Assembly: GCA_977862235.1 (NCBI GenBank)
Contig: OZ374557.1
Location: forward strand, 2,232,001-2,296,000
Direction: 5' to 3'
Source of the DNA: Dudresnaya verticillata
Lineage: Eukaryota
Length of the DNA: 64,000 bases
The position numbers and the translations under genes were made by a program. The notes under the pieces are model-generated. The model searched no databases and was not told the DNA's origin. It saw only the letters and a list, made by a program, of their open reading frames with translations. Below are positions 21 through 42,665 of the stretch, piece by piece (position 1 is the first letter of the stretch; each line of letters opens with the position of its first letter).

Positions 21-3000
21 CTACCCAATCTTCTTCATGTTGCGCAAGTCCCACGAGAACAACAAGCCGTTTAGGCCCTTGAGATTGGCAGGAGGGTCCT
101 CTACTCCCTTGAATATATACGGATACGAACTTAGCTCATACTCCGCCATGACCTTCAAACTGTACACGACCACAAGATGCTCCCCTGGTTTGGCAGATTC
201 TGACAGATCGTGGCCGTGCAAGCGTTCATTCCAGTTCCCTCCTGGAGTCTTTTCCGGATGCAACACGGCCTCCCCCACTTCCTTATCATCTGCAAGAAGC
301 GTGACTCTGTCTCCGGCCTTGGGCATTGCACAAGGTTCAGGTTTTTCCTTCTCCTGCACTTTTCATTCAGCTCCACACTTCCTACAACTATGTCTTCACT
401 CCTGCCGTGCTTCTCGATACTCTCTTCGGGGTCATCCAATGCGTGCTCGGACGGTGTCGTCAGATGGGACATTTCAGGTCCCTTCCTCGTTACGGAATGG
501 TTTGTTGGTTGAGCAGAATCTATTATGACAACACTACCTCTTGCTGCCTCACCGATACCATTCAGTTCGTGATGAGCACTTGATTCCAAACGTTTACGAC
601 CTGTCTTCATTTCATATGCTTCCGTGGCAAGCCTACGTAAACGTTCAGCCCCCAGCTTGAATGTTTCGATCTGTGATTCGATTAGTGTACACCGACGATC
701 TGTTCTGAGAGCTGCAATCCCAGTCGTCATGGTTCCGCTGTGCATATCCAGAACTGATACGCCCTCCGGACAGAATGTTGTCATTATCTCCACAAGTACT
801 TCGGGAGACTTCTCTTCGACCAGAACTGGGGACTTGGTGCCTGGGCGTAGCAACTTGTGTTTCGGTGTTGGTAGAGAGGACATGCACGCGAATTTCCGCT
901 TTTCTGGGGAGGGGATGCAGTGATACTCGCTCCTAAGGTCGAGCGAGAACCCTCCGCCATGCTGACCTGGGGCACGCGCCATGACGGCTATTTCCACACA
1001 GTTCTGGGGCATACCGCTCCCCCGATGTTCCTGCATGGTCTTGGGGTCTTTGGAGAATACGAATGGGTATGCCGGGCACATGAATTGTGCCTTCTTCAGA
1101 GCATCGTGGAATACACTGAAGTTCAGGAATGACGTGAAAACAAACAACCACCCCCTGCTACAAGTACGCGCCTCGAGATCTCAACTATCTTCTTAATGTC
1201 TTCCTCGCTGAGGTAATTATCGAATGACCTCCCCGACTTAGACTGCGATTTCGGTGTACCGTATGGTGGATCTGTGAGGATTAAATCGAATCGTTTGTCA
1301 CCTTCCTTCCTTACGGTACTGTTGTAGCTCTGCCATGTCATCTGAAAGCATGTCAGTTTCATTTCCGCAAGATAATCTATTGGAACAGAAAGCGATCCGT
1401 CCTCCACCGGCACAGCCTTAGTACCCATGTTGAGGCGAACGGACTGCTTTGATAACACAGTTGATATAGTGGGGTCTGTGGGACTCTTTTCCGGCACAGA
1501 ATGGTCTTTGGCTGCACATGCAGCTGTAGGGTCTGCGTTCTGCATGGGTGCCTGTCCAGATTCTGCTGGTTCGCGACCCTCTTCCCTTTTCGAATTGGTT
1601 GATGTTACTAAGTCTGAACCCTCTTCGTCGTTAGAGATTCCGGTAGCGTCCACCTGCGGTGACAACGTGCAGTCCAAATTCTGTTGACCGTCAGAATCTT
1701 TTGCTCCACATTCATTGGAACCCGGGCGGGTCATGATAGCGTCATCACGTCTGCCTTCTGTCGAATCCATCACAGTTTGCATATCTTTGTACTTCTGCAA
1801 CTTCACTGGGGCCTCTTCCGGACAACACTCTCTGTACATCTCAACTATTGTTTTCAACAGTGTACGGTCATTACCTCGATTCATGATGACCTCGACGTCC
1901 AGCTTCGTAGTGTATAACAGGTTTTCTCTTAATTTACTCATGCCTAACGGCCATTCTGTCCCCTCCCTCATTGCTTCAAATTTCCGACTCTCGGAAAGGG
2001 CGGCTGAAGCTTTCACGAATTGCTCTTGTGTGTGTTTGGCCGAAACAGGTTTGAAATTGTGTGTCCTTGACACCTCTCGAAGCCTGTACAGGGTAGCTAT
2101 TTGAACAGTAATGCCGTTTTCAGAGCTGCCTGCATTCATAAAGGCCTTGGAAGACTTGATGGAACTGACGTGAATGAAGCGTCTGTATACTCTGCAATCC
2201 AGATTCTGCATCGCAACATTTGAGTCTATGGCCTTTCCGGAAGCAGTCAACAGTTGCATAGTTGCTAGTTCAGGGACCTCCTCCTTCATTATCTTCCCAA
2301 TTACATCGATAACGCGACGGTCAAGACGAAGAATGGTTGCCGCTGTCTGTTTGATAGTGTTTTCCGATAGATGACTGCATCCATCATATGCTTCGGCAAC
2401 TGCCGTCGCAGTCGGAATCTTCCCATTACTGGCTTCGAGACGGTCTGCCTCTTTCCTCAGACCGCATATCTGATCGTAAGACGTGGTCTCTACAAAAAAG
2501 CTGGAGTCGTGCTTTCTGTTCTGATGACGAGCCAGTTGCTTCAGAATCTGGATGTTGTGCCCCCCTTTAAGCACAGTGGCAGTCAAAGCAAACCCCTTCT
2601 ATGTCTCCCGGTCTTCATCGATTAGCTCCATAATGGCGATAAGTCGATGCATGCCATCAACAACTCCGAGCCACTCCGACCGACTGGAGGCCTCTTCTTT
2701 CACCTGTTTCTCTGTGTACTCTGTCCCATCCGCATTCCGTTTAGCTCGTAGAAACTCAAAAATGAAACTCCTGAAGGGACCTGTTAGGCGAGCCAGTATG
2801 GGTGCATCAGAACCGGCAATGTACCTGTTGTTGTAGTTAGCGCTCCTCGTCCCACCACTCCTGAAAATCTTCTTGAGCCTCTCAACACCGGATCTCGAGA
2901 TGTCCCTTATATCAGTTATTGGAACACAGGACCTGGGGTCTATTCGAATGTTGGTAGACCCCTCCATGACATCTCCAAACAGTGCCTGTGCCATCTCCTC

Positions 3001-3051
3001 CTTCCTTAAGGGCTCACTTGACCCCCTGCTCCGCTTCTTGCGCTTCGACAT
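21..3051 (-). pseudogene. ParB/Srx-like domain + beta-class N6-adenine/N4-cytosine DNA methyltransferase + C-terminal Tnp1-like domain (~1000 codons, disrupted)
   Basis: ORF 2599-3051 has WLGVVDGMHRLIAI (ParB/Srx DGxHR). An in-frame TAG at 2599-2601 joins it to ORF 1123-2586, which ends in FDLILTDPPYG (motif IV). A frameshift in a G-run near 1150 leads to ORF 155-1147 with EK..EV...I...CPEGVSVLDMHSGTMTTGIAA (motif X/I, SAM binding) and CTLIE. Catalytic-before-SAM order indicates beta class. A frameshift near 350 leads to ORF 21-359. Confidence 0.85.
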
Positions 3052-5245
3052 GGTGTGCGAGAGAAAGACTCACTGTGCAAGTGAAAACCGCTCTCCTTGA
3101 AAGAGTACGGAAAGGGGTACTGCATGTCCGACGAGTTGTCCAGATTCTGTTCAGAAAACCTTCCGCAAGAAATTCTTTACGTCCCCGGCTCATGTTTGCA
3201 GGGTGCCGTTTTCGACTGACACAAAACGGGCTTTTGACACACTGGACGGCGGGAGTACAACATGGATGTGCCGCAAATTCTGAGATGGCACGGGAGGTCA
3301 CGTGGATTGTTCACCGGGTGTGGGCAGTCTCCATCAGAACTATTCTTAGCACAGGCCGTACAGTTGGAATTGGTAGAATGCAGGTTTCAGCGGACCTGCA
3401 GGGCGAGATGTAAAAACGTCAATTAGGGCATGCTGCTCGCTGTCCCAGCCGACTTGGCCGGGCTTTGAAGTTGAGGCCGGCCTGGCCATGTGCTGATACT
3501 GCGAGTAAAATAGCATGCCACACACGGTTTCGGGGAGTACTGGCACACTGTTGCCAGCGGCGTGCCAGCGGGGGGCGCGGCGGTCAATTTACGAGGAACA
3601 GGTTCTTGGGGGTGGGAGGTGTCAACACCTGTGGGTGCAATATCAGTATCAGGGAACAGGTGGGGCGAGAGCGCCGGGCCAAATAGCTGTTCATTTGATG
3701 TGGCAAAATGCGCGCTGAAAAACCTGTATAGAATTTCTGTCCAATGATATTGAATAAGCTTGTAAAAGGGTCTTTCCATTGGGCCGCCGTCAACACCTTT
3801 ACAGCTTCTGAATGCGGCCAAGTCACATTGCTATGAGAACAGATATTGCGCTTCACGGCAACGCAGGAGCCCAAAGTGCAATATCAGTATCGGGGAACAG
3901 GTCCTGAGAGCCCGCAAACTCCACAATCTATCTGGCCTCGGCGCTGCGAGCTCACGAGATGAATGCCCAGAATGCGGACACAAATACGCCTACCACAACA
4001 CACTGCCTCACAAACGCCCTTACCCTCGCCGCGACGACTCCCGCTCCGCGAATCCATCACTCACGGTATCCTCCTCCACTCCCCTTCCTCTCCGCTGCGT
4101 AATACCTCCGTTGTGCTTGCCTGCCTGCTTACCGTCCTGCTTCCAGAAAGCCCACCACGTGCAGTACTGCTCTTACCCTGCCCATATGACCTCACGTCCA
4201 ACCCCACCCCCAGCCGTGCAACCGCAGCAGTCATGGAAATCGTTTAACGATAACTTACCTTTACTGACCTCTTGTTGCGCGCGCGCAACCGCCACAGTCA
4301 TGGAAAGTTTTAAGAACCTGGCCCTGCAGCCATGCCGCTAAAGGATGAGGTCTTTCCAGGAGGATCAGCCCCCTTCGGGTCTTTCGGCGATGGATTCTTC
4401 GCTCGTGACTTCTTTGCCACTATGACAAGATGAATCGCAGGCACAGACATGGCAACACGATACGGTGTACGAGAACGGAAGCGATGCCATGTTAACGGTG
4501 ACGGGGTTGCGAAGGCCTCCATGGCTGTTCGACGTGTGGATCGTCTCTGAATGCACACTTGCCACTCGCCCTCGCAAAAAGCTAACCGTCGCAATCCAAA
4601 GTACTGTGGAAGCCTCTATAGGTCGCACCTGGGCCTAGCAGAGGCAGGGAGAGGGTCGCGCGAATTGAGATGAGGGCTTCCTACAACCCCCGATGAGGAC
4701 CCCCTCGCTATCCATTGTACGTCGTTTCATCCCCTGCAAACACGTCTACACAGGACAGAAAATCCTCACAAACGCTCTCTCCGTGGGCTTACGCCCTTTT
4801 CGGTTTTGTGCGCTTCTCACTCTTGTTGTTGACCACGATTGACAGCGCCGTGATCAAAGCTTTCGCGCCACCGGGTTCCAATTATATGGCTGTAGTTTCG
4901 CTTGTTGAGCTATGGTTGCTTGCTGTTTCAACACAGTAGAATAGTTGCTTATTCTAAGTGGATAAGGCGTCGGCACATTTGTCTTTGATATTGTATCTTT
5001 GTTGTTCGATGAGGGCCGCAAAAGCCAGTCCCTTGCTGACATGCATTAGTAAGACAAAGACGTACGAAGAAAGAGGTATTAATGCACGAGGTGGTGGGAC
5101 CGTTTTGAGTGCGGCGACTCCGAATACCCTGCCGCAGAAGCGAGTGTGCACGCCAGAGACCCCATCACGCGGAGAGCTCTATAGCCACACACCTTTCGAG
5201 TCAAGCAGATACAAGCACTGGCTCACCGACACACTGGTACATGCA

Positions 5246-6255
5246 ATGGAAGCAGCACCAACCCCTATCGGCCCTGGAGTGGCGCCGACCGGCGCCTCGT
5301 CGCGCATCCACTGCGATGTCACACCAGCAACCAACAAGCTCGAGTCGCATGTAGCAGTGCCCTGCCTAGAGCGCGCAGTCTCGCTTGGTATGATCGCGGA
5401 TACATCCGAGGCGCGGGAACAACTCCGGTCGTTTCACTTTTCAAGTCTCACGTCCTCGCGTGTTCCCCTCTGCAGACCGCGCGCGCCTGGAAATTGCTCT
5501 ACACTTCTCGTAATGCTTCTTCACCTTCGACAATTTATACTGCGTCGCACGCGGAGGTCGGCCTGCGCGCGTTGGAGGAGCACATGGTGGCCATTGCTTC
5601 CGTGGATGACACGCGGAAGGAAGACGAGCCTGTCGCGCTGGCACTAGGATTGATCATGGAGCGGGTACGGAAGATCGCGCATGCAAGCTCGGTGACGCGC
5701 TTTGCTGGACACGTGAAAAAGTATGTGGAGCGCGTGCGGTGGGAGCGCGCCATGCGAAGTAGCGGGGAGACTCCCGAGCTGGCGACGTTTTGCAAGATGC
5801 GTGCACACTCTGTCGGGGTTATGCCTTCGGTGGACCTGGTAGGGATGCTGATGTGCAACGGGGATTCAGCGGCCGTTGAGGGGTGTGCGTATGTGGGGTA
5901 GCTGTTGGTAATGGGTGTGCAACCATGTTGCGTGGAAAAATGATGTCGTCAGCGTCTGGAAGGACATCCGGGATGGGACAGCGGATAATGTTGTCCTTGT
6001 AATAGCGAGGAAGAGGGGCGTCGGTTGGGCGGAAGTGGTGAAAGATGCGATTGATATATGCAACAAGAGTATATAGCGTACGTTTACGCAAACCCAAACG
6101 TTTGGGAGACTGGAACGGATTGTTGAGAGGTTAAGGGGAGGGCTGACAGAGATACGAATACTTATGTGCAAGGGCTTAAGCACTGGATCCGTGGGCACCT
6201 GGACTGGTGTTCGGAGACGGCGTGTTACCGGAAGGAGTTGGAATTGGCGGCGTAG
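5246..6255 (+). pseudogene. Microbial-type (class I) terpene synthase pseudogene
   Basis: Motifs in correct order across frameshifts: VFPSADRARLEIALHFS*CFFTFDNLY (degenerate Asp-rich helix, ~5460-5540), KMRAHSVGV (R-sensor, ~5795-5820), AWKNDVVSVWKD (NSE/DTE motif, ~5930-5965), NVVLVI, and YVQGLKHWIRGHLDWCSETACY (WxxxxxRY-like, ~6163-6228). No introns apparent. Confidence 0.85.
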
Positions 6256-6924
6256 AGGTTCGGTGTTGGGTTTGCATCATCGGGTAAGGACACGACACTT
6301 TGTGCATGCAGTTCAGACACTTGTATCGCGATTGCAGAAACGTTAAACAAGAAAACGTGAGTTGGAGCTTTTGTTGCTTCTCAACATGGTCACCAAAAAG
6401 TCGTCTATGCGCAGACAGCACTGCCCATTCGCAGCCTGCAGTCTCTAAGCGCGGTGGTTATCGAGGAGGCGCTGAGCTTCATCACGAAGGGCGCAAGATT
6501 GGAAACAGACACCGCAGAACCGCGTGCATCCGCCTGTTCTAGAAGAGCGGCTAGGACCTGCACCCTACAGCCCTAGGGTGATCGTCAGTTGTATGTGTCC
6601 GCCTCTCACCAGCTGGAGAGTTGTACCTGAAATGTAATTGGCCAAGTGCCGAACCAGAATCTGATCACAAACAGAATCTGGATGGCAGAACAACCCAGAT
6701 GCACCCCGTGCAGCCACTCGTGCCGCTCTACGGGTGTGCAGCCTCAAGAGCAGGCAACAGGCGGCGCGGCGCGGTATCACAGAGGGTATTTAATGCGCAA
6801 GCGTTTTGCTGCGAAGGGCTGCGCCTCCCCGCCATGTCGGACATGTGCCTTAAGAGACTACAAAGCGGGCGCTCTGCTTAGAGCGTGAAGGGAAGACAGA
6901 ACGAGTGGCACTCTCACAAGCTGT

Positions 6925-9914
6925 GTGCAGATGCCGTCGCGCAAGGGCATTTTGAACGACATGGAAATGAGCCCGTCAACTACGGATTGCGCTGAGCGAG
7001 AAAATGAAGCAAAGAAAGGAGGAGGCAACGCGCGCGACGAAGGGCGTGTTGCTCTTCTGTATGACAGGGAAATGGTCGGCACTGCTATTGTCAAGAGACC
7101 GGGGACAAAAGAGGACGCAGACCAGTCTGGCAGGTATTGTGTCACCCTGCATGGCCACAAATTGTCTCCCAGTCAGAAAAAAGGGGAGAAGCTGGTTGTG
7201 GTTTACCGAGCACAAATCATGCAACCGTATGAGAAACTTCAGTACAAATACAAGTACAAGACAACGGACTCAGTTCCGCACACACTTGGGGAGATGGGTG
7301 GGGGTTTTCATGCATGGGATGTGAACTACATTCAGGAGCTCGGCAATCGAGAAATCGCGCCGTTGTGCCAGAGACGGTTGTACTCTCCACGACAAGGCAT
7401 AGTTCGTCGCAGAATTTACCCAATACTGAGCAATTGCCCCCCGACGTCAACTGCAGAACACAATGCCGCAGCGGTGGCCCCTACCGCATCGCCCCAGCAG
7501 ATGACACCAGTTGACACGACAAGGCCAGCATCACCCCTCCAACAAAATGCGGGGCCGCAAGCGGATGCCGCAGCGCGGTCAATTCGAACAATACCCCCGC
7601 CTGGCAATGTTCCGAGCAGTGAGGAATTGAGTGAACCGCGAGAGCATTTGAGGGAGGCCGGCCATGATGATGCGGACGCCGTACGGCATGTGTCGGAAAG
7701 TCATGACGATGCGTATGACCCTTTTCAGAAGGTGCAGGTCAGGACGAAGCGAAAGTATACTTACAGGAAGAGAACATAGCAGACATTCAGTGGGAGAGGA
7801 AGTCTTCAGAAGAGACGTAGGCATCTGTTCCAAGTCCTGGAACGCGCAAACACGCAGTCAATGAGATGCTGCATCGGAAACAAGTGATTCCAAAGTGTGG
7901 AGCAAGTGTACTTAAAGGCGGAGGCGCGCAGAATTGCCGGAATGAACGTAGAAGCAAGGCGAACGTATCTTCGCAATCTGTTGGACACGAGCAAGATGAA
8001 ATACTTTTCAACCGTCAGCCTGTCCGTTACAACTTTTTGGAGCAGGCCTTTGGATTCTCCCGTGACTTACAGACCTCTGTAAAAGGCACGAGGCAGTCCC
8101 GGAAGCTGCAACTCCCAAACAATGCGAGGCGTGATACCTCATCCCATCAGCAGGATACTATTATTTGCTTCCTTGAACGTCTTGCGGACAGCACTGCTGA
8201 ACCAATGCCCGATAATGGGGAGTCACACCTCCCCTACTTTCAGAAATCAGTTGTGTACGACATCTTCAAATTGGACCACACCAGGCTGTACAGAAACAGG
8301 GATATTCCGTGTCAGAGTTACTTTTACTTTGTATGGAAACACAGTTGCTCCCGCATTAAGGTGCGAAAGACACACCGATTTGCAAAGTGCAGCGAATGCG
8401 AACTCATTCGCGAGCGACTTGCTCAAGCAGGGACCTCTGGAGCAGGCACTGAACACCTGCATGAGCGGCGCAACATTCGCTTGAAATTCATACAGGCAGA
8501 GAGACGTGAATATCAGAAAAAATGTGAGCAGGCGATACTATTGCCGCAGGAGTATTGCTCCCTCATAGTGGATGGTGCTTATCAGTCCGCATTTGGACTT
8601 CCCCATTTTGTGGTGTCGTCCAAAGCCAGCATTGGGCATGCCATGAAAGCGAAATTTATTGGGGTGCTTGAACACAGGGCTGAGAAGCGTCTGCACTTGT
8701 ACAAAATGACCGGTGAGTTCGAGACCAGCGCGAACCACATTATCGAGGCGTTGCACAGAACGCTTTCGGACAAACAGTCCAGAGGAGAGCTACAAGGGAC
8801 TTTATTTCTACAAGTAGACAACTGTTCGAGAGAGAACAAAAGTACCTTTTTGTTCTCATACCTGGAGAGTCTCGTTGCATGGGGTGTGTTCCAAGAGGTC
8901 TTCGTGTCTTTCCTGCACGTCGGGCACACTCACACAGATATAGATCAGGCCTTTTCGTGCACGGCACGCCGGCTTAAAGTTCGGGACGCAGTCACAATGA
9001 CTGAATTGATGGAAGAGCTTCGGCAGTCGTACAGTCCAGAACCAGTTGTCAGTCGCATGCTTCAAATTGGGATTTTTTCAGGCCTGTGTCGACAGGAAGG
9101 ATGCATTGGTAATGTTGAGGCATTCACGACCTATCGCTATTTCAGATTCCACCGTGTGGGTCCAGCTGCTGCGACGGAAGAGGCAGAATCTGTTGCAGCT
9201 TTCGTGACAGGCTGTCAATTGAGAATGACATGCGCGGATGACTTGTTTCCGTTGCAGACTGGAGGAGAGCATAAGGGGTTCATACTATCCCCTCCTGACC
9301 TTGGCAAGACTCCAGCAACAGTGGTCAAATCGCCGCCAGATTTGAAGGAAGTCAACGACAGGTTTCGTTCTGAAGAGACACGTGTGAATGACACGGGAAA
9401 GATGAGGGAGCTGCAGGAATTGCGGGACCACGTGTACAGAGATAGGCTGGAAACGTTTCATTGGGATATGGGACGCATATTTTAGACAAGGGGAAAGTAC
9501 AGCGGAAGAGCGGCGCTGGAGTACGTACCGGAAGGGGATGACGGTGAGGAGGAGACTGTGACCCCCTCTTCAGACCTGCAGTACACGAAGAACTACTTCG
9601 TTGCCGTTGTGAGGGAGAACGCCACCGCACGATGCCCATTTTGGATTGGACAGATTCTAGATGTTGTGCAGGACGCTACGGGAAAGGCTACTGAGCAGTA
9701 TATAAGATGGTACGAGGCGTATGAAGGTAAGGGTGCTTGGGACGGAAAGTACAAGGCATCCATATACTCAGCGACTAAGCAGCCATGGACTGGTACTGTC
9801 GGCGTCGCGACCGTAATGGTCGAATTCGAAGCTCTTACGAAGAGACGTCTACCGCAGCTCGTCCAGAAGAGAATCAGAGAATCGCCGTTGTTAGTTTGGT
9901 ATGCCGGCTCTTGA
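6925..9914 (+). pseudogene. DDD-type (Sola-like/DUF7869-like) DNA transposase with N-terminal Tnp1-like domain, Cys-rich motifs and C-terminal BAH-like domain; disrupted
   Basis: ORFs 6925-7779 and 7897-8082 are in one frame, separated by stops. A frameshift at a T-run near 8005 leads to 7866-9485, and an in-frame stop leads to 9558-9914. Motifs: RCC..K, FAKCSEC, LIVDGAYQ, LFLQVDNCSRENK, FLHVGHTHTDIDQAFS. C-terminal PFWIGQI...IRWYE resembles BAH/SH3-fold modules. Superfamily assignment is from remembered motifs only. Confidence 0.75.
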
Positions 9915-10104
9915 TACGAGAAACAGCTACAACCAGTAAAGTATACTCTCAGGTTGATGCAGCACACGAGAAATGCAAGGCCATTCGACGCCTGTAGCGC
10001 CCGTCTACGCCACAAGCTAAGTCTGAACCGCGGGTGTGCAAGCGGCTTAGCTACCTGGTAGTGTACCAGGTCGGGCGGGTAGTGGGCCCAGTTGTGAGCA
10101 CGGG

Positions 10105-10570
10105 TCAGAATGCGGGTGGCCGTGCCGCACGGGAGCGGGGTAGGGGTGAGGGAGGCGTGTCGGGGGACTGCTGGGCGGGGCTGACCATGCGTCAGAATGC
10201 GGCAACTTGATGTGGACGTGTCAGAATGCGGCCAGGCGCGGTGCGCAGGAGCGTGGGGAAGGGCGGCGGCGAGGTGTCGGCGAACGGCAGGGAGCCTGAG
10301 ACAGAGTGCGGTCAAAGGCCGGACTGGGGCGGGGAACGGCACTACGGGTCTGGGAGGGGGTGGGGAAGCGCGCCTCATTACGCGCAAGGCAGAAGCAGAG
10401 CGCGTGCACACGCGCCAGAATGCGGAATGCGTGGGCCAGTAGCAGCACCAGGAAGGGTGATGGTGGGAGTGGCTGTCGGATGTGGGGAGGTGGCCGAGCG
10501 CGCGTCGGAATGCGGTGGGAAGCCAAGACCGAGCGCGTCGGAATGCGGCGGGAAGTCGCCAGAATGCGGT
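10105..10570 (+). repeat. Subterminal short direct repeats, core (CA/CG)GAATGCGG, about 8 copies
   Basis: Copies near 10106, 10192, 10221, 10302 (variant), 10415, 10505, 10538 and 10559. The 10495-10560 stretch includes a longer duplication CCGAGCGCGTCGGAATGCGG. Confidence 0.85.
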
Positions 10571-10807
10571 GTTCGGTCGGGGGGCGGGGGCGCGGGCGCG
10601 GGCGGCGGGACGGGCCAGAATCAATTTCTGGAGAATTTTTAATTGGAACTTTTCGGAAAAATCACAACTTTTGGGAACTTTCGACCCCGGGGGCCCCATA
10701 TTCTCAGGGTATCGCCCCCTTTCCAACGCGCTATCGAACGCCGGGATTCAAGGACCCTCAAAAAATTCTGTTCTGTTTTGGAAATTCTGTAGCCGGCGAA
10801 ATTAGTG

Positions 10808-17779: not shown

Positions 17780-18701
17780 TGTGGTATAACGAAGTCCACG
17801 GAGACGCGGGGAAGTCTCGCACTGTAAGGAATGGCCTCGGAGCCTAACGAATGGCCTCGTAGCCTAACGGAGAAACGAAAAGGGGTGGTAGCGTTGTAGA
17901 GCGGAGCGACCAACACGAAGGACCACGGTGTCAACGTATTCGTGTGCGGAAGGGAGAACTTGAGCGATCGATCACCGGGGATGACTCCGGGTGCGTGGGG
18001 CTATCGAAAGCGAGGCTCGACCGTATCCGCGGTCACGAAGACGAAGACACCGAACTCGAAGAAACAGGCGTTTACCGAAGACTCCGAGGTCCGGGCGCTA
18101 GTCGCTTGCCGGAAACCCTCGGAGGTTGTGCCAGACGACTGGCTAAGTAGTACTACGTGAGCACGAATGCGCGTCAACTCGGGAGACGGTTCGTACTCGA
18201 ATGATTCGTAACGGCCTCGGTGCCAGCGAACGGTCGCCTCACGTATGGTGGCGGTTGCGAAGTGCGCCAGCGATGCGCGTGTGTCGTGGGCCCCGGTGCC
18301 GTTACGCGAGGGAAACAACGGGAAAGTCACGAAGATGTCAGCGATTTCGTATCGGGTGCGCACTGTAATGCGAATGCCATCGTGGCGCGCGCGATCACGA
18401 AGTCGGATCGGGATTCGTCCGGAGGTGTCAGCGATTTCGTATCGGGTGCGCACTGTAATGCGAATGCCATCGTGGCGCGCGCGATCACGAAGTCCGATTG
18501 GGATTCGTCCGGAGGTGTCAGCGATTTCGTATCACGTGCGTGCTGTAATGCGAATGCCATCGTGGCGCGCGCACCGTATGCATCGCTGTAATACGTTTGC
18601 CATCCTGGCGTGCACATTCACGGAGTCATTTCGAAATTCATATTTCTCGATTATTTTCACGTAGGCCACGGAGTCGTTTCACGGATAGTGTCTATACCAC
18701 A
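17780..18701 (-). repeat. 5' LTR of element A (922 bp)
   Basis: Perfect 9-bp terminal inverted repeat TGTGGTATA...TATACCACA, with adjacent PBS. Confidence 0.92.
18336..18572. repeat. 90-bp tandem repeat (~2.6 copies) inside LTR A
   Basis: TGTCAGCGATTTCGTATC... starts at 18336, 18426 and 18516. Confidence 0.95.
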
Positions 18702-28546: not shown

Positions 28547-31222
28547 CTATTTTGCCGCACCCTCCTCCAAGTCGGGAATATCTTCACCATACACCCTTGC
28601 GGTGATCATGGTGAGCCTCCTGCCGGTGTCTTCCATGCGTCGACGCAAAGCACGAATGGTACACCGTAGGCACACCAGACGCCCGACCCACAGCACGGCG
28701 GTGTTAATGGCCTCGTTCGCCGACGCTGGAAGGGGCATGCTGGAATCTCTACACCCTTCGCGGAGTCGCTGCAGGGCAGCCCCATCTACGCGCAACTCCG
28801 CTTCGGTCCAACTCGTCATCTCCTTCGGGGCATCCTCTTCTTGTTTCACCACCACGGGGTCGATATTACGGGGTGGTCCTCCAGCTGGACCCGCAGCGGC
28901 CACAAACGTCACGGAGTCACTCGACGCGGGCGACACCGGTTTGGCAGTTTCACCCCGCTTCGGTACAGGGGTCTTCACTGCTACTCTAGACCGTGTGATC
29001 GCGAGTGCCTCCACTTGGTCGATCCCCGCCGGTGTAGCGCCCTCTTCCATTTCGGAGTCTTCGTGTTCCCCGACGGGGCCCAACTTCGCCACGGCTGCAG
29101 CTACTACCGTGGGCTTCTGACCAACTCCCGCTACGGTATTCGCCGCCTTGTCCAACTTGGTGTTCTTGTTAACCCCCGGCGAGGCCACCGGTTTCGAAAC
29201 CCCGATTGGTGTAGATGCTGCGGCCACCCCCGACAAACCCCCCTGCGTCTCGATCTCCGCTCCTACAGGAGGAGACTCTGTTACGGTATTCTTGGGCGAC
29301 GAAGTCGTGCGGTCGCCCCACACCTTTATGGCTTCTCCACCAGGGGATTCTCTTGGCACGAGGACCCTGGGGTCCCCGCGCACCCTCTCAATCTCGTCAA
29401 CCCCCACTGGTGTAATCTCGTCAGCAGGCGGACTGTCGAGGCGTCCCTGTTGATGCTGCACACCGAATGGAGTACCCCACTCGCGTGACGGCGGAGCCCT
29501 TGATGGCCCCTCCGTCATGGGGTAGAAGCGCGAGCGGGAGCGCATCGCGTGCCAGCTCAACATTTGCTCGTCGATCAACCACACCGGTTCGGGGTCTTCG
29601 TCCGACAGGAAATAAGCCATACCGCATCCGGAGTTAAGTGGCGGCACCGATAACACGCGGTCTTCGTCCCAATGGTAACCGACGAATCCTGGGGTTCGCT
29701 CCCAGTTGGTGTTCGCGCGAACCGCGAAGAGACGCTCAACACGCGCCAAGGGGTATTCGGTCCCCTCAACCAACCGGGCCACTCCAACTTGGTGTATGAG
29801 GGCAACCACTGTGCTTGGTAGCTTGAAGATGCGCCCGCACTCGCCACCTTCTGGATCCGTTCTGTTACGCGGGTATGCCCTCCAGTCGGTCATCTTGGTA
29901 TTGGCTCTCACGTCCCGGTAGGTAACTTGTAACCAAGCGAAAAGGACGAACATTGCCCATTCCGCTCGGAGTATTCGCCCCAACACGGTCATCAGTAGAT
30001 GGTCAACCGACTTCTCTCCGGCTGGGTGTGCATCTTGCCAGTCGCGCTGCTGGATAAACCGATTGGAGAGGTACGCTACCACCGTCGGAGTTGGCACCGA
30101 CAGCCAACGTGTGATTTCGTACTCAGCCCACCAATCCGGAGCGGTGCAGTATAATCGACGCTGCGCCCCCGGCGGAACCTGGAAGAATTCGTTCGTGTTC
30201 CAAGTGTGGAGTATCGCCCTTCCGAGGCGGCGTCCATCTCTACCCCGCAATCGGAGCCGATGCTCTTTCGCTGCGTCGTCAGCCCACCGTTGCGGATTCC
30301 CAAGCCAATGAACACCTTGGTCATATGGTTTTTCGTAGCAAAGGAAATCGACACCAACCGGATGATCTCGCAGTCGATGGTCCATTGCCAACAATCGACA
30401 CACCTTATCGGGATAGCCCTCTTCTTCCTGACATCTCAACCACACGATGTCACACCCAAGTGGAGTTCGCACCCTACAGTTTGCGTGAATCCACCTGGCC
30501 CTCCACATCTCTGCACGCCGATTCGGGAACCACTTGTTGTTGATTAACCCACCGGCGTCTGTAACAGCACTGTAGCGACTCCCCTCGAGGTTTTCACCAT
30601 AGTTGGAAACGAACACCGATACGGTAATGGGGAGACGCACCATATCTCGCTCCTCTTCGGTACGCTGACGCCGCCCGGTGCGGTGGTCATACTCCCGGCC
30701 CGGCCAAGTTCCCTCATCGGTGTACCCCGTCTAGTCCACACGCCCGTGGTAACTCCCCAGTGTCCCCGGCGCGTATGGCAGTGAACCCGACGGTCCGCCG
30801 CCGACACCCATGTGGAGTGGGGCTGAGGTTACTCCAGTTCTACCGTGCCCAACCTGGAGACCCTGCGCGTACGCCTCATATCGCCCATGCGGAGTTGTGC
30901 GACGATAACCACCAAGCTCCATCTCGGTGATGCCCTTTGAAGGACCGGGTCGTTGTACCCCCGGCCCCACCTGTCGATCCGGGAGCGGAGTGGGCGTCTG
31001 GCGAGCCTCGCCATCATTGCGTCGGCGCGGAACACGCGGGCTACCCGTGCGTGCTGGCAGCATCGGCATTGTGCTCGCTGCCGCCACAACTCCTGATATG
31101 GTGTCCGCAGATCCGCCGCCTTCTCCCTCTTCTGCCTCCGGCGCAGGAGCCGCCCCCACCGATGGTGTACGCCGTGTCGTTTGAAAGGGGACCCGTGCGC
31201 GGTCAGTGTTGCCGCCCGCCAT
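28547..31222 (-). CDS. Antisense accessory ORF of element C (unknown function; 698-codon open segment plus disrupted 5' part)
   Basis: ORF 28547-30643 has a Trp-rich globular region, a low-complexity linker and a helical C-terminus. Probable ATG at 31222. Conserved in copy C2. Confidence 0.8.
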
Positions 31223-39258: not shown

Positions 39259-42200
39259 TTAACGCCGGACGTAGGGGTCAGCGTATTCGCCTGGCCGAGA
39301 AGAGTAGGGCATCGGAGACCTTGGTCCCGCTGCCCCACCAGCATCCGACGATGGGTCGGCCGTGCGTGGTAAGAACGGGCTGGCCGCGGGAAGAGACATG
39401 GAAGGCGTGCCGGCCATACTAGAACGCGGAGCCGCCACCGGGGTGCCAGGCGCTGAAGGCCCGGCGCGAGCAGGTTCAGGTTGGTAATCCGACGGCCGAG
39501 GAGCAACGCGACTTTGGCCGGAGGGAATATCAAAGACTTGAGCTGGCGTCGGAGGAGCTTGAGTCGGTGTAGCAGCACCCGGCGTCCCAGCGAAGTTGGG
39601 CATCATGGGAACATTGGCCGAAAGTTGCTGATAGGGATGATGGTGAGACGGAAACTGGCCAAACGATGGAGCGGCCAGTGTCCTTATAGAAGCCAGCTGG
39701 TGGAAGCTGCGGTTGCGCTCCAAGTCCAGTAGCGTCTGCTGCTGATGGGCCGAGTCGCACCAACGGTCGCGCTGGCGCTTCCACTCCTCGCCCTGCTCCT
39801 TATGCATGGCCAGCCTCTCCTGGACATCCCGGTTAACGCCGTTGAGTCGGTTCAGCTCTCGTTTCAGACCGGCCAACTCTTCTTCACGCTTATCAATAAC
39901 GGCCTTACCCCCATCGAGATAACGTCGATAGCGTGCAATATCGACCAAGTCCTTCTCCCGCATCTCCCCGAATCGGCCGATGCATTGGTCCAGCTGGCGT
40001 AGAACAGTCACCAACGGGGCTTGGTTCAAATGACCCCTGACACTAAGCTCGGCCACAAGTCGAGGATGCGGCTGGAGAGTTTGCGGCCGAATGATAGAAG
40101 CTTCGTTGGCCACTTCCACGCCGAAGCTGCTACCGTGGCGGAAGGTAATCTGCTTACCCCAATCGAAACCACAGTACTGCTCGTCTTGCGACCCACGACG
40201 AGAAAACAAGTGGGGACGATTACGGACAGCATCGGCCAACTTGTCATAGAGGTCCACCACGTCCGGCCAATACACGTCGTTGTACAAGTGCTGGTGTGCG
40301 GGGTTCACCGGAAGCGAAGGGAGATCCTTAATGGCCGAAACTCTCTTCTCAATACTCTGAAGAGACATCCACCACATCCGCTTGGAAGCTTGTGCTTCGT
40401 AGCGGAAAAACATGGCGGCCATAACATGAATCTCCCTAGTCGTGATCTGCCGGAAGTAACCATACCAATCCACCTCAGTCGGCCATGTCTTGTACTGATG
40501 AACGAAGTAATAGGCCGTGGGACTCAACAAAGGGCACTCACCAGCAGTCGGCCATTCAGGCCAAAGGAAGGCCGGAATTGATGGGAAGGTAGTCACGGGC
40601 GGCCAGAAACACTGTTGCCCACGACCACCGGCCAAGTAGATGTAGCAACCAGTCGTCTGATGAGCAACCCAGTCGGCCGGCGCAATCACGCGGCGCAAGT
40701 CCGTGCTAGCCCACTTCGCACTACGCACCACGGCCTGGTCTGCACGATCCAACCTCCAAGACTGAGGGAAGGCATGCCACCAAGTAAACATATATGGCAT
40801 CACAGAAGATCGGCCGGTAAGCGTAAGCCAAGCTTGATGGACCAACAAGACGTCGCCCATGTTAAGTAGGAAGACGCGGTCGTATCCAATCTCCCATGGC
40901 ATCCAATATAAGTGGCCGCCAGCGCGCGAAGAACGGAACTGGCGCCAATTGTCGGCCAAGTTATCGGGACTCTCACGAAGACGAACCATATCCAGTTTCG
41001 GCGAAGTAGCCACCAGCTCCGTGTAGTTGATGTCAACTCTCGGACACTTCGGCCATATGGACATATCGGGCAAACTCGCGTCTAGTCGCAACTCTGGGCC
41101 ATCGCGATCTTCAGTCCCCGGTGGGATGTGAGCCGGCCGATGTGACGCCGTCTGAGTGTGTCTAGCAGGGTCTAAATCCTGCGGCAGGGGAGAATAATTG
41201 GCCGGTGTAGAAATCGGAACGGAATGGCCACGAGTTGGACGAGCAGATGATGCGGACGGCCGACGAACTTCCCGACTAGTGGCCGTGGCGTCCACTACGT
41301 CCTCACGCGGAATAAGTGCAGACTCTCTGAGGTCTGGCGTGGGAGCTGGAACGGCCGGCGAAGATGTTTGAGGAGCCGGAGCGGGAGCTGGAGCAACTTG
41401 CCCTTCATCATTCGGCCGAGGGAGATCTTCTAAGTCAGGTAGCTGACTAACGAAGCGCCGCTGGTCGCCATCACTCATCAACCTGGCCGGTGGCACAGGC
41501 GTGTCCGTATCAACGTCGATCACTTCGCTCCTTGAAGGAGGAGGTACCTTCTTAACGGCCGCTGTCTTCTCTTCTTCGGCCACTCGCAGCTTCTTCAATG
41601 GTGGGCTACGTGACGAAGAGGGCTTTAAGCCTGGGCCGGATCGACGAGTAGGCATGAAGGGCGAGGGAGATGACCGCAAGCGAGGCGCCAAACGATGTGC
41701 CGTGGGATTATCGGTGGCCTTCTCAGCAGTCGGCCGTCGTGGAACAGCAACGCCTGCTAAAGCACGCGCCTTCTCTCTCTGGGCCACTACATCCATGGCT
41801 TCACGCAATACGGCCAAGTCTTCTGGGTTGGCCGTCTCAGCACGATCCGCCTTCTTCCCATCGGCCGACTTATCGAGAGCCGTCTCAGCCGTTTTAGCGT
41901 TGCCATCAGTTCCAACACTGGCACACGGGGTAGATTGTTTGGCCGAAGTTGAAAGCGGGGCCGGCGGCGCAATAGCGGTAACGGTTGAAGGGCGAACTGC
42001 CGTCTTACTGGCCTGCTTATTGGTAGCCACGACTATAGGAGCAGATGACGCTCCTGCTACAGTGTCGGCCGCGGCTGTGCGCGTCGAGGGCGAAGACAGT
42101 GACGGCGCAAGTGGGAGACTTTTGATGCCGGCCGAAGAAGACGCCACCGCCACCTTCGGCGACGGTGGAAGAGCAGATATGGCCAACTTCATCGGCCTCG

Positions 42201-42665
42201 ACTTGGAAACGGGAGGGGGTGTCGGAGATGATGACGAAAGTAACACTGCATCGGCCGACGTCTTCTCATTGGTCTTCTTCGCTCCTTCCAACACGGCCAA
42301 ACGACTCTGTAGTTCCAAGATTTCCTTGTCTTCGGCCTCCGACGCTCGCGGTAGTTGGCCAGAACCTTCTGCAACTCTTCAGTGTCGGCCGGCTCCTTAC
42401 TTGATTCAGCCACTACCTTCTTTACTTGAGTCGCGGCCGAATGCTTGGATGATGACGGCACTGTAACCTTGGCCGGCGCACTCTTGGACGACGATGCAAC
42501 AGCCTTCCGCAAGTCAGCCATTGATGGCGGAGCCTTCTTCGTTTGGTCGGCCGTGTCATCCCCGCTTGAAGAGTCCGAAGAGATAACTCGTGGGGGCGGA
42601 GTCTTCTTCGCACGGCGAGTAGAGGGAGCGCGACGCGCGCGCTGTTTGGCCGGACCGGTAGTCAT
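39259..42665 (-). CDS. Antisense accessory ORF of element B (~1130 codons, one frameshift near 42345; unknown function)
   Basis: 1019-codon open frame plus upstream ORF 42189-42665. S/P/A-rich N-half with NLS-like PPLKKLRV, a Trp-rich central domain, a coiled coil and a Pro-rich tail. Confidence 0.8.

Follow-up and report, generated by a model that had tools for sequence, protein, structure and literature searches.

Gene content of the decayed element

The 64-kb stretch of Dudresnaya verticillata contig OZ374557.1 analyzed here (64,000 nucleotides, referred to throughout as the window) is eukaryotic and rich in Gypsy elements, and its first part (1 to 10.8 kb) is occupied by a large, decayed DNA transposon whose left end lies beyond the window. 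Within this element, two divergent and decayed genes, one specifying a DNA methylase and the other a DUF7869 transposase, flank a fragment of a terpene synthase gene (Table 1). The two products share a domain of approximately 95 residues, present as domain A at the end of the methylase and as domain B at the start of the transposase, which we tentatively regard as a portable targeting module.

The methylase gene is interrupted by an in-frame TAG (2599 to 2601) and by frameshifts near 1150 and near 360, the latter of which separates the open reading frame (ORF) of domain A (21 to 362) from the methylase body. Intact homologs, identified here by protein cluster (P0105 and others), cover positions 3045 to 27 in three frames with 40 to 55% identity (tblastn). 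On sequence grounds, the methylase is assigned to the beta class of N4C/N6A enzymes, because DPPY precedes motif I (the order in the window gene being DPPY, then DMHSGTMTT) and intact homologs pass the Pfam N6_N4_Mtase cut-off of 26.7 (P0105, 45.9 bits; P0104, 54.9 bits), the window pieces alone falling below it; matches among Protein Data Bank (PDB) sequences are of the DpnA/CcrM type. Motif I is non-canonical in this family, mostly reading D-x-Y-[AG]-G-T as opposed to the canonical FxGxG. A DGxHR motif, which we take to be ParB-like, is conserved in the methylase N termini (DGMHR in the window); no ParB match for this region was returned by Pfam, NCBIfam, PHROGs, or PDB sequences. In a subfamily comprising P0154 and P0161, TQVP or TQAP replaces DPPY and the SH3-like domain is retained; judging by their sequences, these methylases are likely inactive.

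The transposase gene, broken by stops at 7777, 7885, and 9483 and by a frameshift near 8005, is recognized by Pfam DUF7869 with an E value of 1.3e-43 (149 bits; cut-off, 26). Two transposase motifs, KRKYTYR and CC, lie downstream of domain B in its reading frame: 144 stop-free codons follow the domain (chance of approximately 0.0008, the five other frames having two to seven stops), and KRKYTYR and CC are separated by 40 residues, compared with 39 to 43 in six intact domain-bearing transposases (the gap was unmeasurable in the seventh, P0068). The model of the intact P0065 resembles mariner transposases (SETMAR, Z 8.8, root mean square deviation [rmsd] 3.2, 165 residues aligned; Mos1, Z 9.1), and the acidic sites D512, D595, and D635/D637 are conserved in 29/29 rows, the window among them. 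DUF7869 proteins are, as modeled, DDE/D transposases with a predicted RNase H-like core and acidic triad. The C-terminal residues 850 to 941 of P0065 match the BAH domain of SHL/EBS (Z 8.0, rmsd 3.0, 85 residues aligned) and also that of DNMT1 (BAH1), which suggests a possible chromatin-targeting domain at the end of these transposases, on which no paper was found. No CACTA transposase was matched in the window by Pfam, and a PDB sequence-profile search with the transposase produced nothing significant; the DDD-type triad is compatible with Sola1, and the DUF7869 transposase may be linked to the Sola superfamily. Distant DUF7869 relatives were also encountered on contigs of bacterial metagenome-assembled genomes (L003 to L009), which are probably eukaryotic contamination, and on an IMG/VR giant-virus contig (L010).

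Homology of the two domain copies

It had been predicted from the DNA sequence alone that the end of the methylase and the start of the transposase are homologous, and this proved correct. BLASTP of 24-362 (minus strand) against 6889-7776 (plus strand) aligned 103 residues, 39 of them identical (38%; E value of 8e-19), and the local alignment score of 158 was attained by none of 5,000 shuffles (mean, 25.4; standard deviation, 4.4; maximum, 61). At the nucleotide level, the best blastn match extends over 25 nt (E value of 0.13), identity at codon positions 1, 2, and 3 is 50, 62, and 37%, respectively (92 codons), and 26 of the 37 identical residues other than Met and Trp are encoded by differing codons. 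The loss of DNA similarity, the codon-position pattern, and the differing codons together indicate that the split between A and B is old and was constrained at the protein level. A recent local DNA duplication was ruled out as the origin of the pair, as no DNA similarity is left. The original prediction of an old duplication under selection, therefore, stands in its age and protein-level constraint; as to A and B being sisters through local duplication, the approximately unbiased (AU) test spoke neither for nor against (p = 0.39).

A six-frame hidden Markov model search of the window returned A and B and no third copy. Domain A matches the C termini of the intact methylases P0105, P0169, P0182, P0154, and P0161. 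Near-invariant residues of the domain family are H, Y, P, W, and D, most of which are retained in domain B, from which the PYPY prolines of the family are gone.

Distribution of the domain and pairing of the two genes

When domain A was searched against 1.84 billion representatives, 39 matches were obtained, 38 of which were confirmed by the domain profile, P0153 (VWC repeats) being discarded as spurious. They comprise 11 N6_N4 methylases, six whole or truncated transposases (four classed by motifs, P0147 confirmed via a full-length cluster mate), one ParB-like protein (P0130), and, as the remainder, fragments. The overall tally is of 12 N6_N4 methyltransferases that end with the domain and seven full-length DUF7869 transposases that start with it; the domain is located 0 to 5 residues from the C terminus in 12/12 methylases and at most 10 residues from the N terminus in 11/11 transposase-type proteins, both sets having been selected through the domain itself. 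Five of 103 transposase homologs (search range, 304 to 970 amino acids [aa]) carry it at the N terminus (P0052, P0065, P0066, P0068, and P0073), as do two longer proteins (P0141 and P0164), and P0105 (1,010 aa), one of two long methylases found independently of the domain, ends with it. Because such intact fusions exist on both sides, the possibility that A and B represent independent small ORFs was ruled out. P0130 represents a third architecture: it is 749 aa long, has the domain at its N terminus and a DGRHR motif of ParB-like type (read by eye), and is reminiscent of the red-algal accessory protein PAG3 discussed below. Scans of viral, metagenome, and genome contigs with the methylase query returned no locus of the family, apart from two distant matches of 25 to 26%, and those with the transposase query returned seven and one distant loci; the domain profile was matched in 0/5 of the genomes behind the distant transposase loci in an incomplete scan run without a positive control.

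Pairing of the two genes in relatives was assessed from protein clusters whose listed source contigs have exactly equal lengths. Methylase cluster P0105 and transposase cluster P0004 display five such matches, P0129 and P0001 (the top-scoring transposase match of the window) display two, and P0154 and P0029 display one, spotted by eye. The methylase family thus appears to travel with DUF7869 transposases in three element families, strongly so for P0105/P0004 and P0129/P0001, and these equal-length matches, which are independent of the domain, bear out the earlier claim that the two genes belong to one system. In 3/3 inferred pairs, the domain is carried by the methylase and the called transposase is without it, and a paired bridge is thus not obligatory. 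An upstream exon is possible in the paired transposases, though a 5,994-bp contig has less than 700 bp outside the two ORFs. In this sparse sample, 0/20 contigs that encode a transposase with the domain equaled any of the 33 methylase contigs in length.

Identity and predicted fold of the domain

In size and in its residue pattern (V..G.V...HG..L....V.V....P....LG...W), the domain presumably resembles Transposase_23 (Tnp1/En-Spm) and DUF8039, domains of plant CACTA accessory proteins, the first of which the original prediction had offered as a label. No Pfam scan returned it: neither the window copies (E ≤ 1) nor 39 homologs (E ≤ 0.1) nor 22 alignment members (E ≤ 10, with HMMER filters that drop most matches above an E value of 0.1) had, in the domain, a match to any Pfam family, Transposase_23 and DUF8039 included. 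A remote relationship is possible. NCBIfam gave no match and PDB sequence profiles no significant one, PHROGs gave one weak and unnamed match, and the Atlas had no usable match for two homologs. By its sequence, the domain appears to be an unnamed family missing from Pfam.

The AlphaFold2 model of domain A (predicted local distance difference test score of 92.7) has, in a comparison with 48,161 chains, structural neighbors that are nearly all of the SH3 class in the top rows, the best at Z 4.1 and none at 5 or above. The foremost is the C-terminal domain of KorB (Z 4.1, rmsd 2.2, 49 residues aligned), tied with dozens of SH3 domains; integrase C-terminal, KOW, PWWP, Tudor, and PAZ domains are other weak neighbors (SH3-class range, Z 3.2 to 4.1), and Foldseek returned nothing at E ≤ 0.001. 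The predicted fold of the domain is, on this basis, an SH3-like barrel. Its layout is analogous to that of KorB, a ParB-family protein, and of retroviral integrase, a DDE recombinase, both of which bear such a barrel as an appendage; however, approximately 50 of 99 residues align (Z 3.3 to 4.1) and the window domain has long insertions, consistent with analogy. In the model of an intact transposase, the domain folds separately on a disordered tether of approximately 125 aa, an arrangement which, with its terminal position, is that of a targeting or interaction module added to a protein end.

History of the domain on the transposase

In the domain tree (44 rows, 10 near-duplicates and two fragments having been left out; bootstrap not fully settled), 11 transposase copies and four N-terminal fragments form one clade (97/91), outside which domain B is located, among the methylase copies. 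The same division is evident in the number of residues preceding the WD motif, which is 20 to 22 in 15/15 rows of the transposase clade, 14 to 16 in 13/13 methylase rows, and 15 in B (two rows were unmeasurable). Five methylase or other domains score against A as high as B does or higher. In the transposase core tree (93 rows after removal of 14 short ones), the window core is placed in a 14-row (starred) clade whose other 13 rows are domain-less, apart from the clade of seven domain-bearing proteins; its closest relatives (57 to 59% identity) possess long, low-complexity N termini without the domain. Since B lacks the insertion, groups with methylase copies, and belongs to a core nested among domain-less transposases, it is likely that the lineage of the window acquired the domain from a methylase gene a second time, independently of the old clade. 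The domain and core trees concur within the transposase clade, in which P0065, P0066, and P0073 are split from P0052, P0068, P0141, and P0164 (35 to 47% identity across the clade); this agreement indicates that the domain was retained and co-inherited with the core in an old clade.

Possible function of the domain

With somewhat less than even confidence, we favor over three alternatives the view that the domain is a portable targeting module of transposon proteins, which would guide any element protein carrying it to one common site on DNA or chromatin. It would represent a standard C-terminal part of the ParB-like/methylase accessory protein, of which the transposase N terminus received a copy a single time in an old clade that kept it and likely again in the lineage of the window. 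The domain is fixed in the methylase (even in P0154 and P0161, which are without DPPY), optional on the transposase, and present on a third partner, P0130, and its restriction to the methylase in the inferred pairs is as expected for a module working without a twin. The suggestion that the module couples methylase and transposase to each other is weakened by those pairs; its companion, targeting to the same site, is the best reading of the data.

Several observations weigh against the targeting proposal. Present on just 5 of 103 transposase homologs, the domain is dispensable for most of them, and P0104, one of the two long methylases found independently of it, is without it; database gene calls, moreover, ignore introns, and an upstream domain exon could escape notice in "domain-less" transposases. 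The best Z score of 4.1 lies under the informative level of the tool, and membership in the SH3-like fold class is no proof of function. The AU test does not reject B within the transposase clade (p = 0.14), by which one gain followed by losses is possible, and the window copy is a pseudogene with no sign of selection on B after fusion.

The KorB SH3-like C-terminal domain has a role in dimerization, and beta-class methylases often dimerize; a homotypic dimerization handle of the KorB type, coupling methylase to transposase where both bear it, is an explanation to which we give about one chance in four. It draws on the rank of KorB, a ParB-family protein, as top fold neighbor and on the presence of the domain on both genes in the window, and is countered by the domain-less transposases of all three inferred pairs, by the failure of any domain-bearing transposase contig to match a methylase contig, and by the tie of KorB with dozens of SH3 domains. 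A predicted complex of A and B scored 0.00, alignments not being used and the partner fold being uncertain, and is evidence for neither side.

A writer-reader pair, in which the domain would read an m4C or m6A mark written by the methylase of the element and the transposase would thereby recognize self-marked ends, is improbable. The near-invariant H, Y, P, W, and D could make a small pocket, PWWP, Tudor, and PAZ are among the weak fold neighbors, and the domain is fused to both writer and transposase in an element with GAATGCGG repeats near its end and between its genes; however, the domain is kept on methylases without DPPY, motif I is mostly YxGT, leaving methylation activity putative, and most transposases are without the domain. 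It is just as improbable that the domain matters on the methylase alone and was shuffled in the window to an unconstrained transposase N terminus as a neutral passenger: the domain-free N termini of the closest relatives, the absent PYPY prolines of B, and the decayed locus would suit this, whereas a separate transposase clade kept the domain with congruent trees and B retains most near-invariant residues together with an open in-frame linker.

A broader and speculative scheme, which we consider unlikely, is an epigenetic addressing system encoded by a family of eukaryotic cut-and-paste transposons. The methylase would mark the element, the SH3-like module, having been placed on the transposase at least twice and on other accessory proteins, would read the mark or dock the methylase on the transpososome, new copies would be labeled as self at insertion, and the BAH-like domain would read host chromatin. 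For any of these proposals, the domain offers a testable handle, being 95 residues long, predicted to fold well, available in intact natural copies, and accompanied by a candidate DNA motif.

Comparison with known systems

Pairing of methylase and transposase genes is already known in algae, and the shared domain is absent from the family libraries searched. A literature search, outside whose coverage most subscription journals and Repbase Reports lie, returned no publication dealing with DUF7869 or with a domain common to these proteins. The Ectocarpus element Sola1-1_Ec32, as described in the accessible text of its report, is a 21.5-kb DNA transposon with AACCG-CGGTT termini, a 282-bp terminal inverted repeat, and a 4-bp target site duplication, and encodes a 1,104-aa protein with ParB-like and N4C/N6A methyltransferase parts (PMC12477816). 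As in the window, where the corresponding gene specifies approximately 1,000 aa, methylase and transposase are encoded on opposite strands; in contrast to the window, with which it was compared by description, that text mentions no domain common to both proteins, and similar ParB and methylase proteins are cited in it for green and red algae (PMC12477816).

The Plavaka accessory genes (PAG) of Bostrychia and other red algae include, in the portion of the preprint available, PAG2, a PF01555 methylase with SET, and PAG3, which combines ParB with a 2OG oxygenase (bioRxiv 10.1101/2025.02.11.637652). They share with the present case a setting in giant red-algal DNA transposons, mobile DNA-modifying accessory genes, repeat arrays, and movement between transposon families; the window differs in its combination of ParB-like, methylase, and SH3-like parts with no SET seen, and in its DUF7869 in place of the Plavaka transposase (bioRxiv 10.1101/2025.02.11.637652). 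Excerpts of further reports describe N6_N4_Mtase genes in several red algae, 66 of them in Asparagopsis (PMC12115072), giant En/Spm elements in Chondrus (PMC6431247), and Dam methylases fused to ParB-HTH in chlorophytes (PMC4738411).

Element structure and surroundings

The features of the element are compiled in Table 1. The terpene synthase fragment is possibly captured cargo. Microbial-type terpene synthases are linked to red algae and, together with the N6_N4_Mtase genes of several red algae, make a red seaweed the likely host of the element. The motif GAATGCGG is matched 10 times in the window against 2.6 expected, a number reached in 0/100 shuffles, and two of its sites lie outside the array, between the two genes, at 3810 and 3970.

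Table 1 Features of the decayed DNA transposon and their positions in the window
Feature	Positions	Strand	Description
Accessory (methylase) gene, decayed	21-3051	-	ParB-like N terminus, helical region, beta-class N4C/N6A DNA methyltransferase (assigned by sequence), domain A
Domain A	24-320	-	~95 aa, SH3-like (predicted), C-terminal part of methylase gene; stop codon at 21-23
Direct repeat, 27 bp, 96%	3635-3661 and 3876-3902		Intergenic, beside two GAATGCGG sites
Terpene synthase fragment, microbial-type	5185-5901	+	Pfam Terpene_syn_C_2, E 9.9e-13; PDB T-muurolol synthase, E 1.3e-6
DUF7869 transposase, decayed	6934-9914	+	Domain B, disordered linker, KRxYxYR and CC motifs, RNase H-like DDD core, C-terminal BAH-like domain
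Domain B	7030-7344	+	Second SH3-like copy (predicted), N terminus of transposase; methylase-type, without 5-6 aa insertion
BAH-like domain of transposase	9486-9914	+	C-terminal, past in-frame stop; homologs align through the stretch
Array of seven GAATGCGG-core repeats	10095-10571 (repeats 10108-10569)	+	Likely subterminal; repeat families D1-D3
Right end of element (probable)	10790-10807	+	Gypsy chromodomain gene interrupted; TAGTG at 10803-10807, or ~10 bp further left

At the right end, TAGTG (CACTA on the minus strand) adjoins the repeat array and may be the terminus of the element or a chance occurrence, as the same bases may encode the Gypsy residues TLIS. A firm CACTA label for this end was rejected on account of the ambiguous junction.

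The rest of the window (10758 to 64000) consists of nested, decayed retrotransposons of the Gypsy/chromovirus type, and long ORFs of no recognized kind are present on the minus strand at 28547 to 30730 and 39259 to 42378. A tandem repeat with a unit of approximately 90 bp is located at 18330 to 18572.

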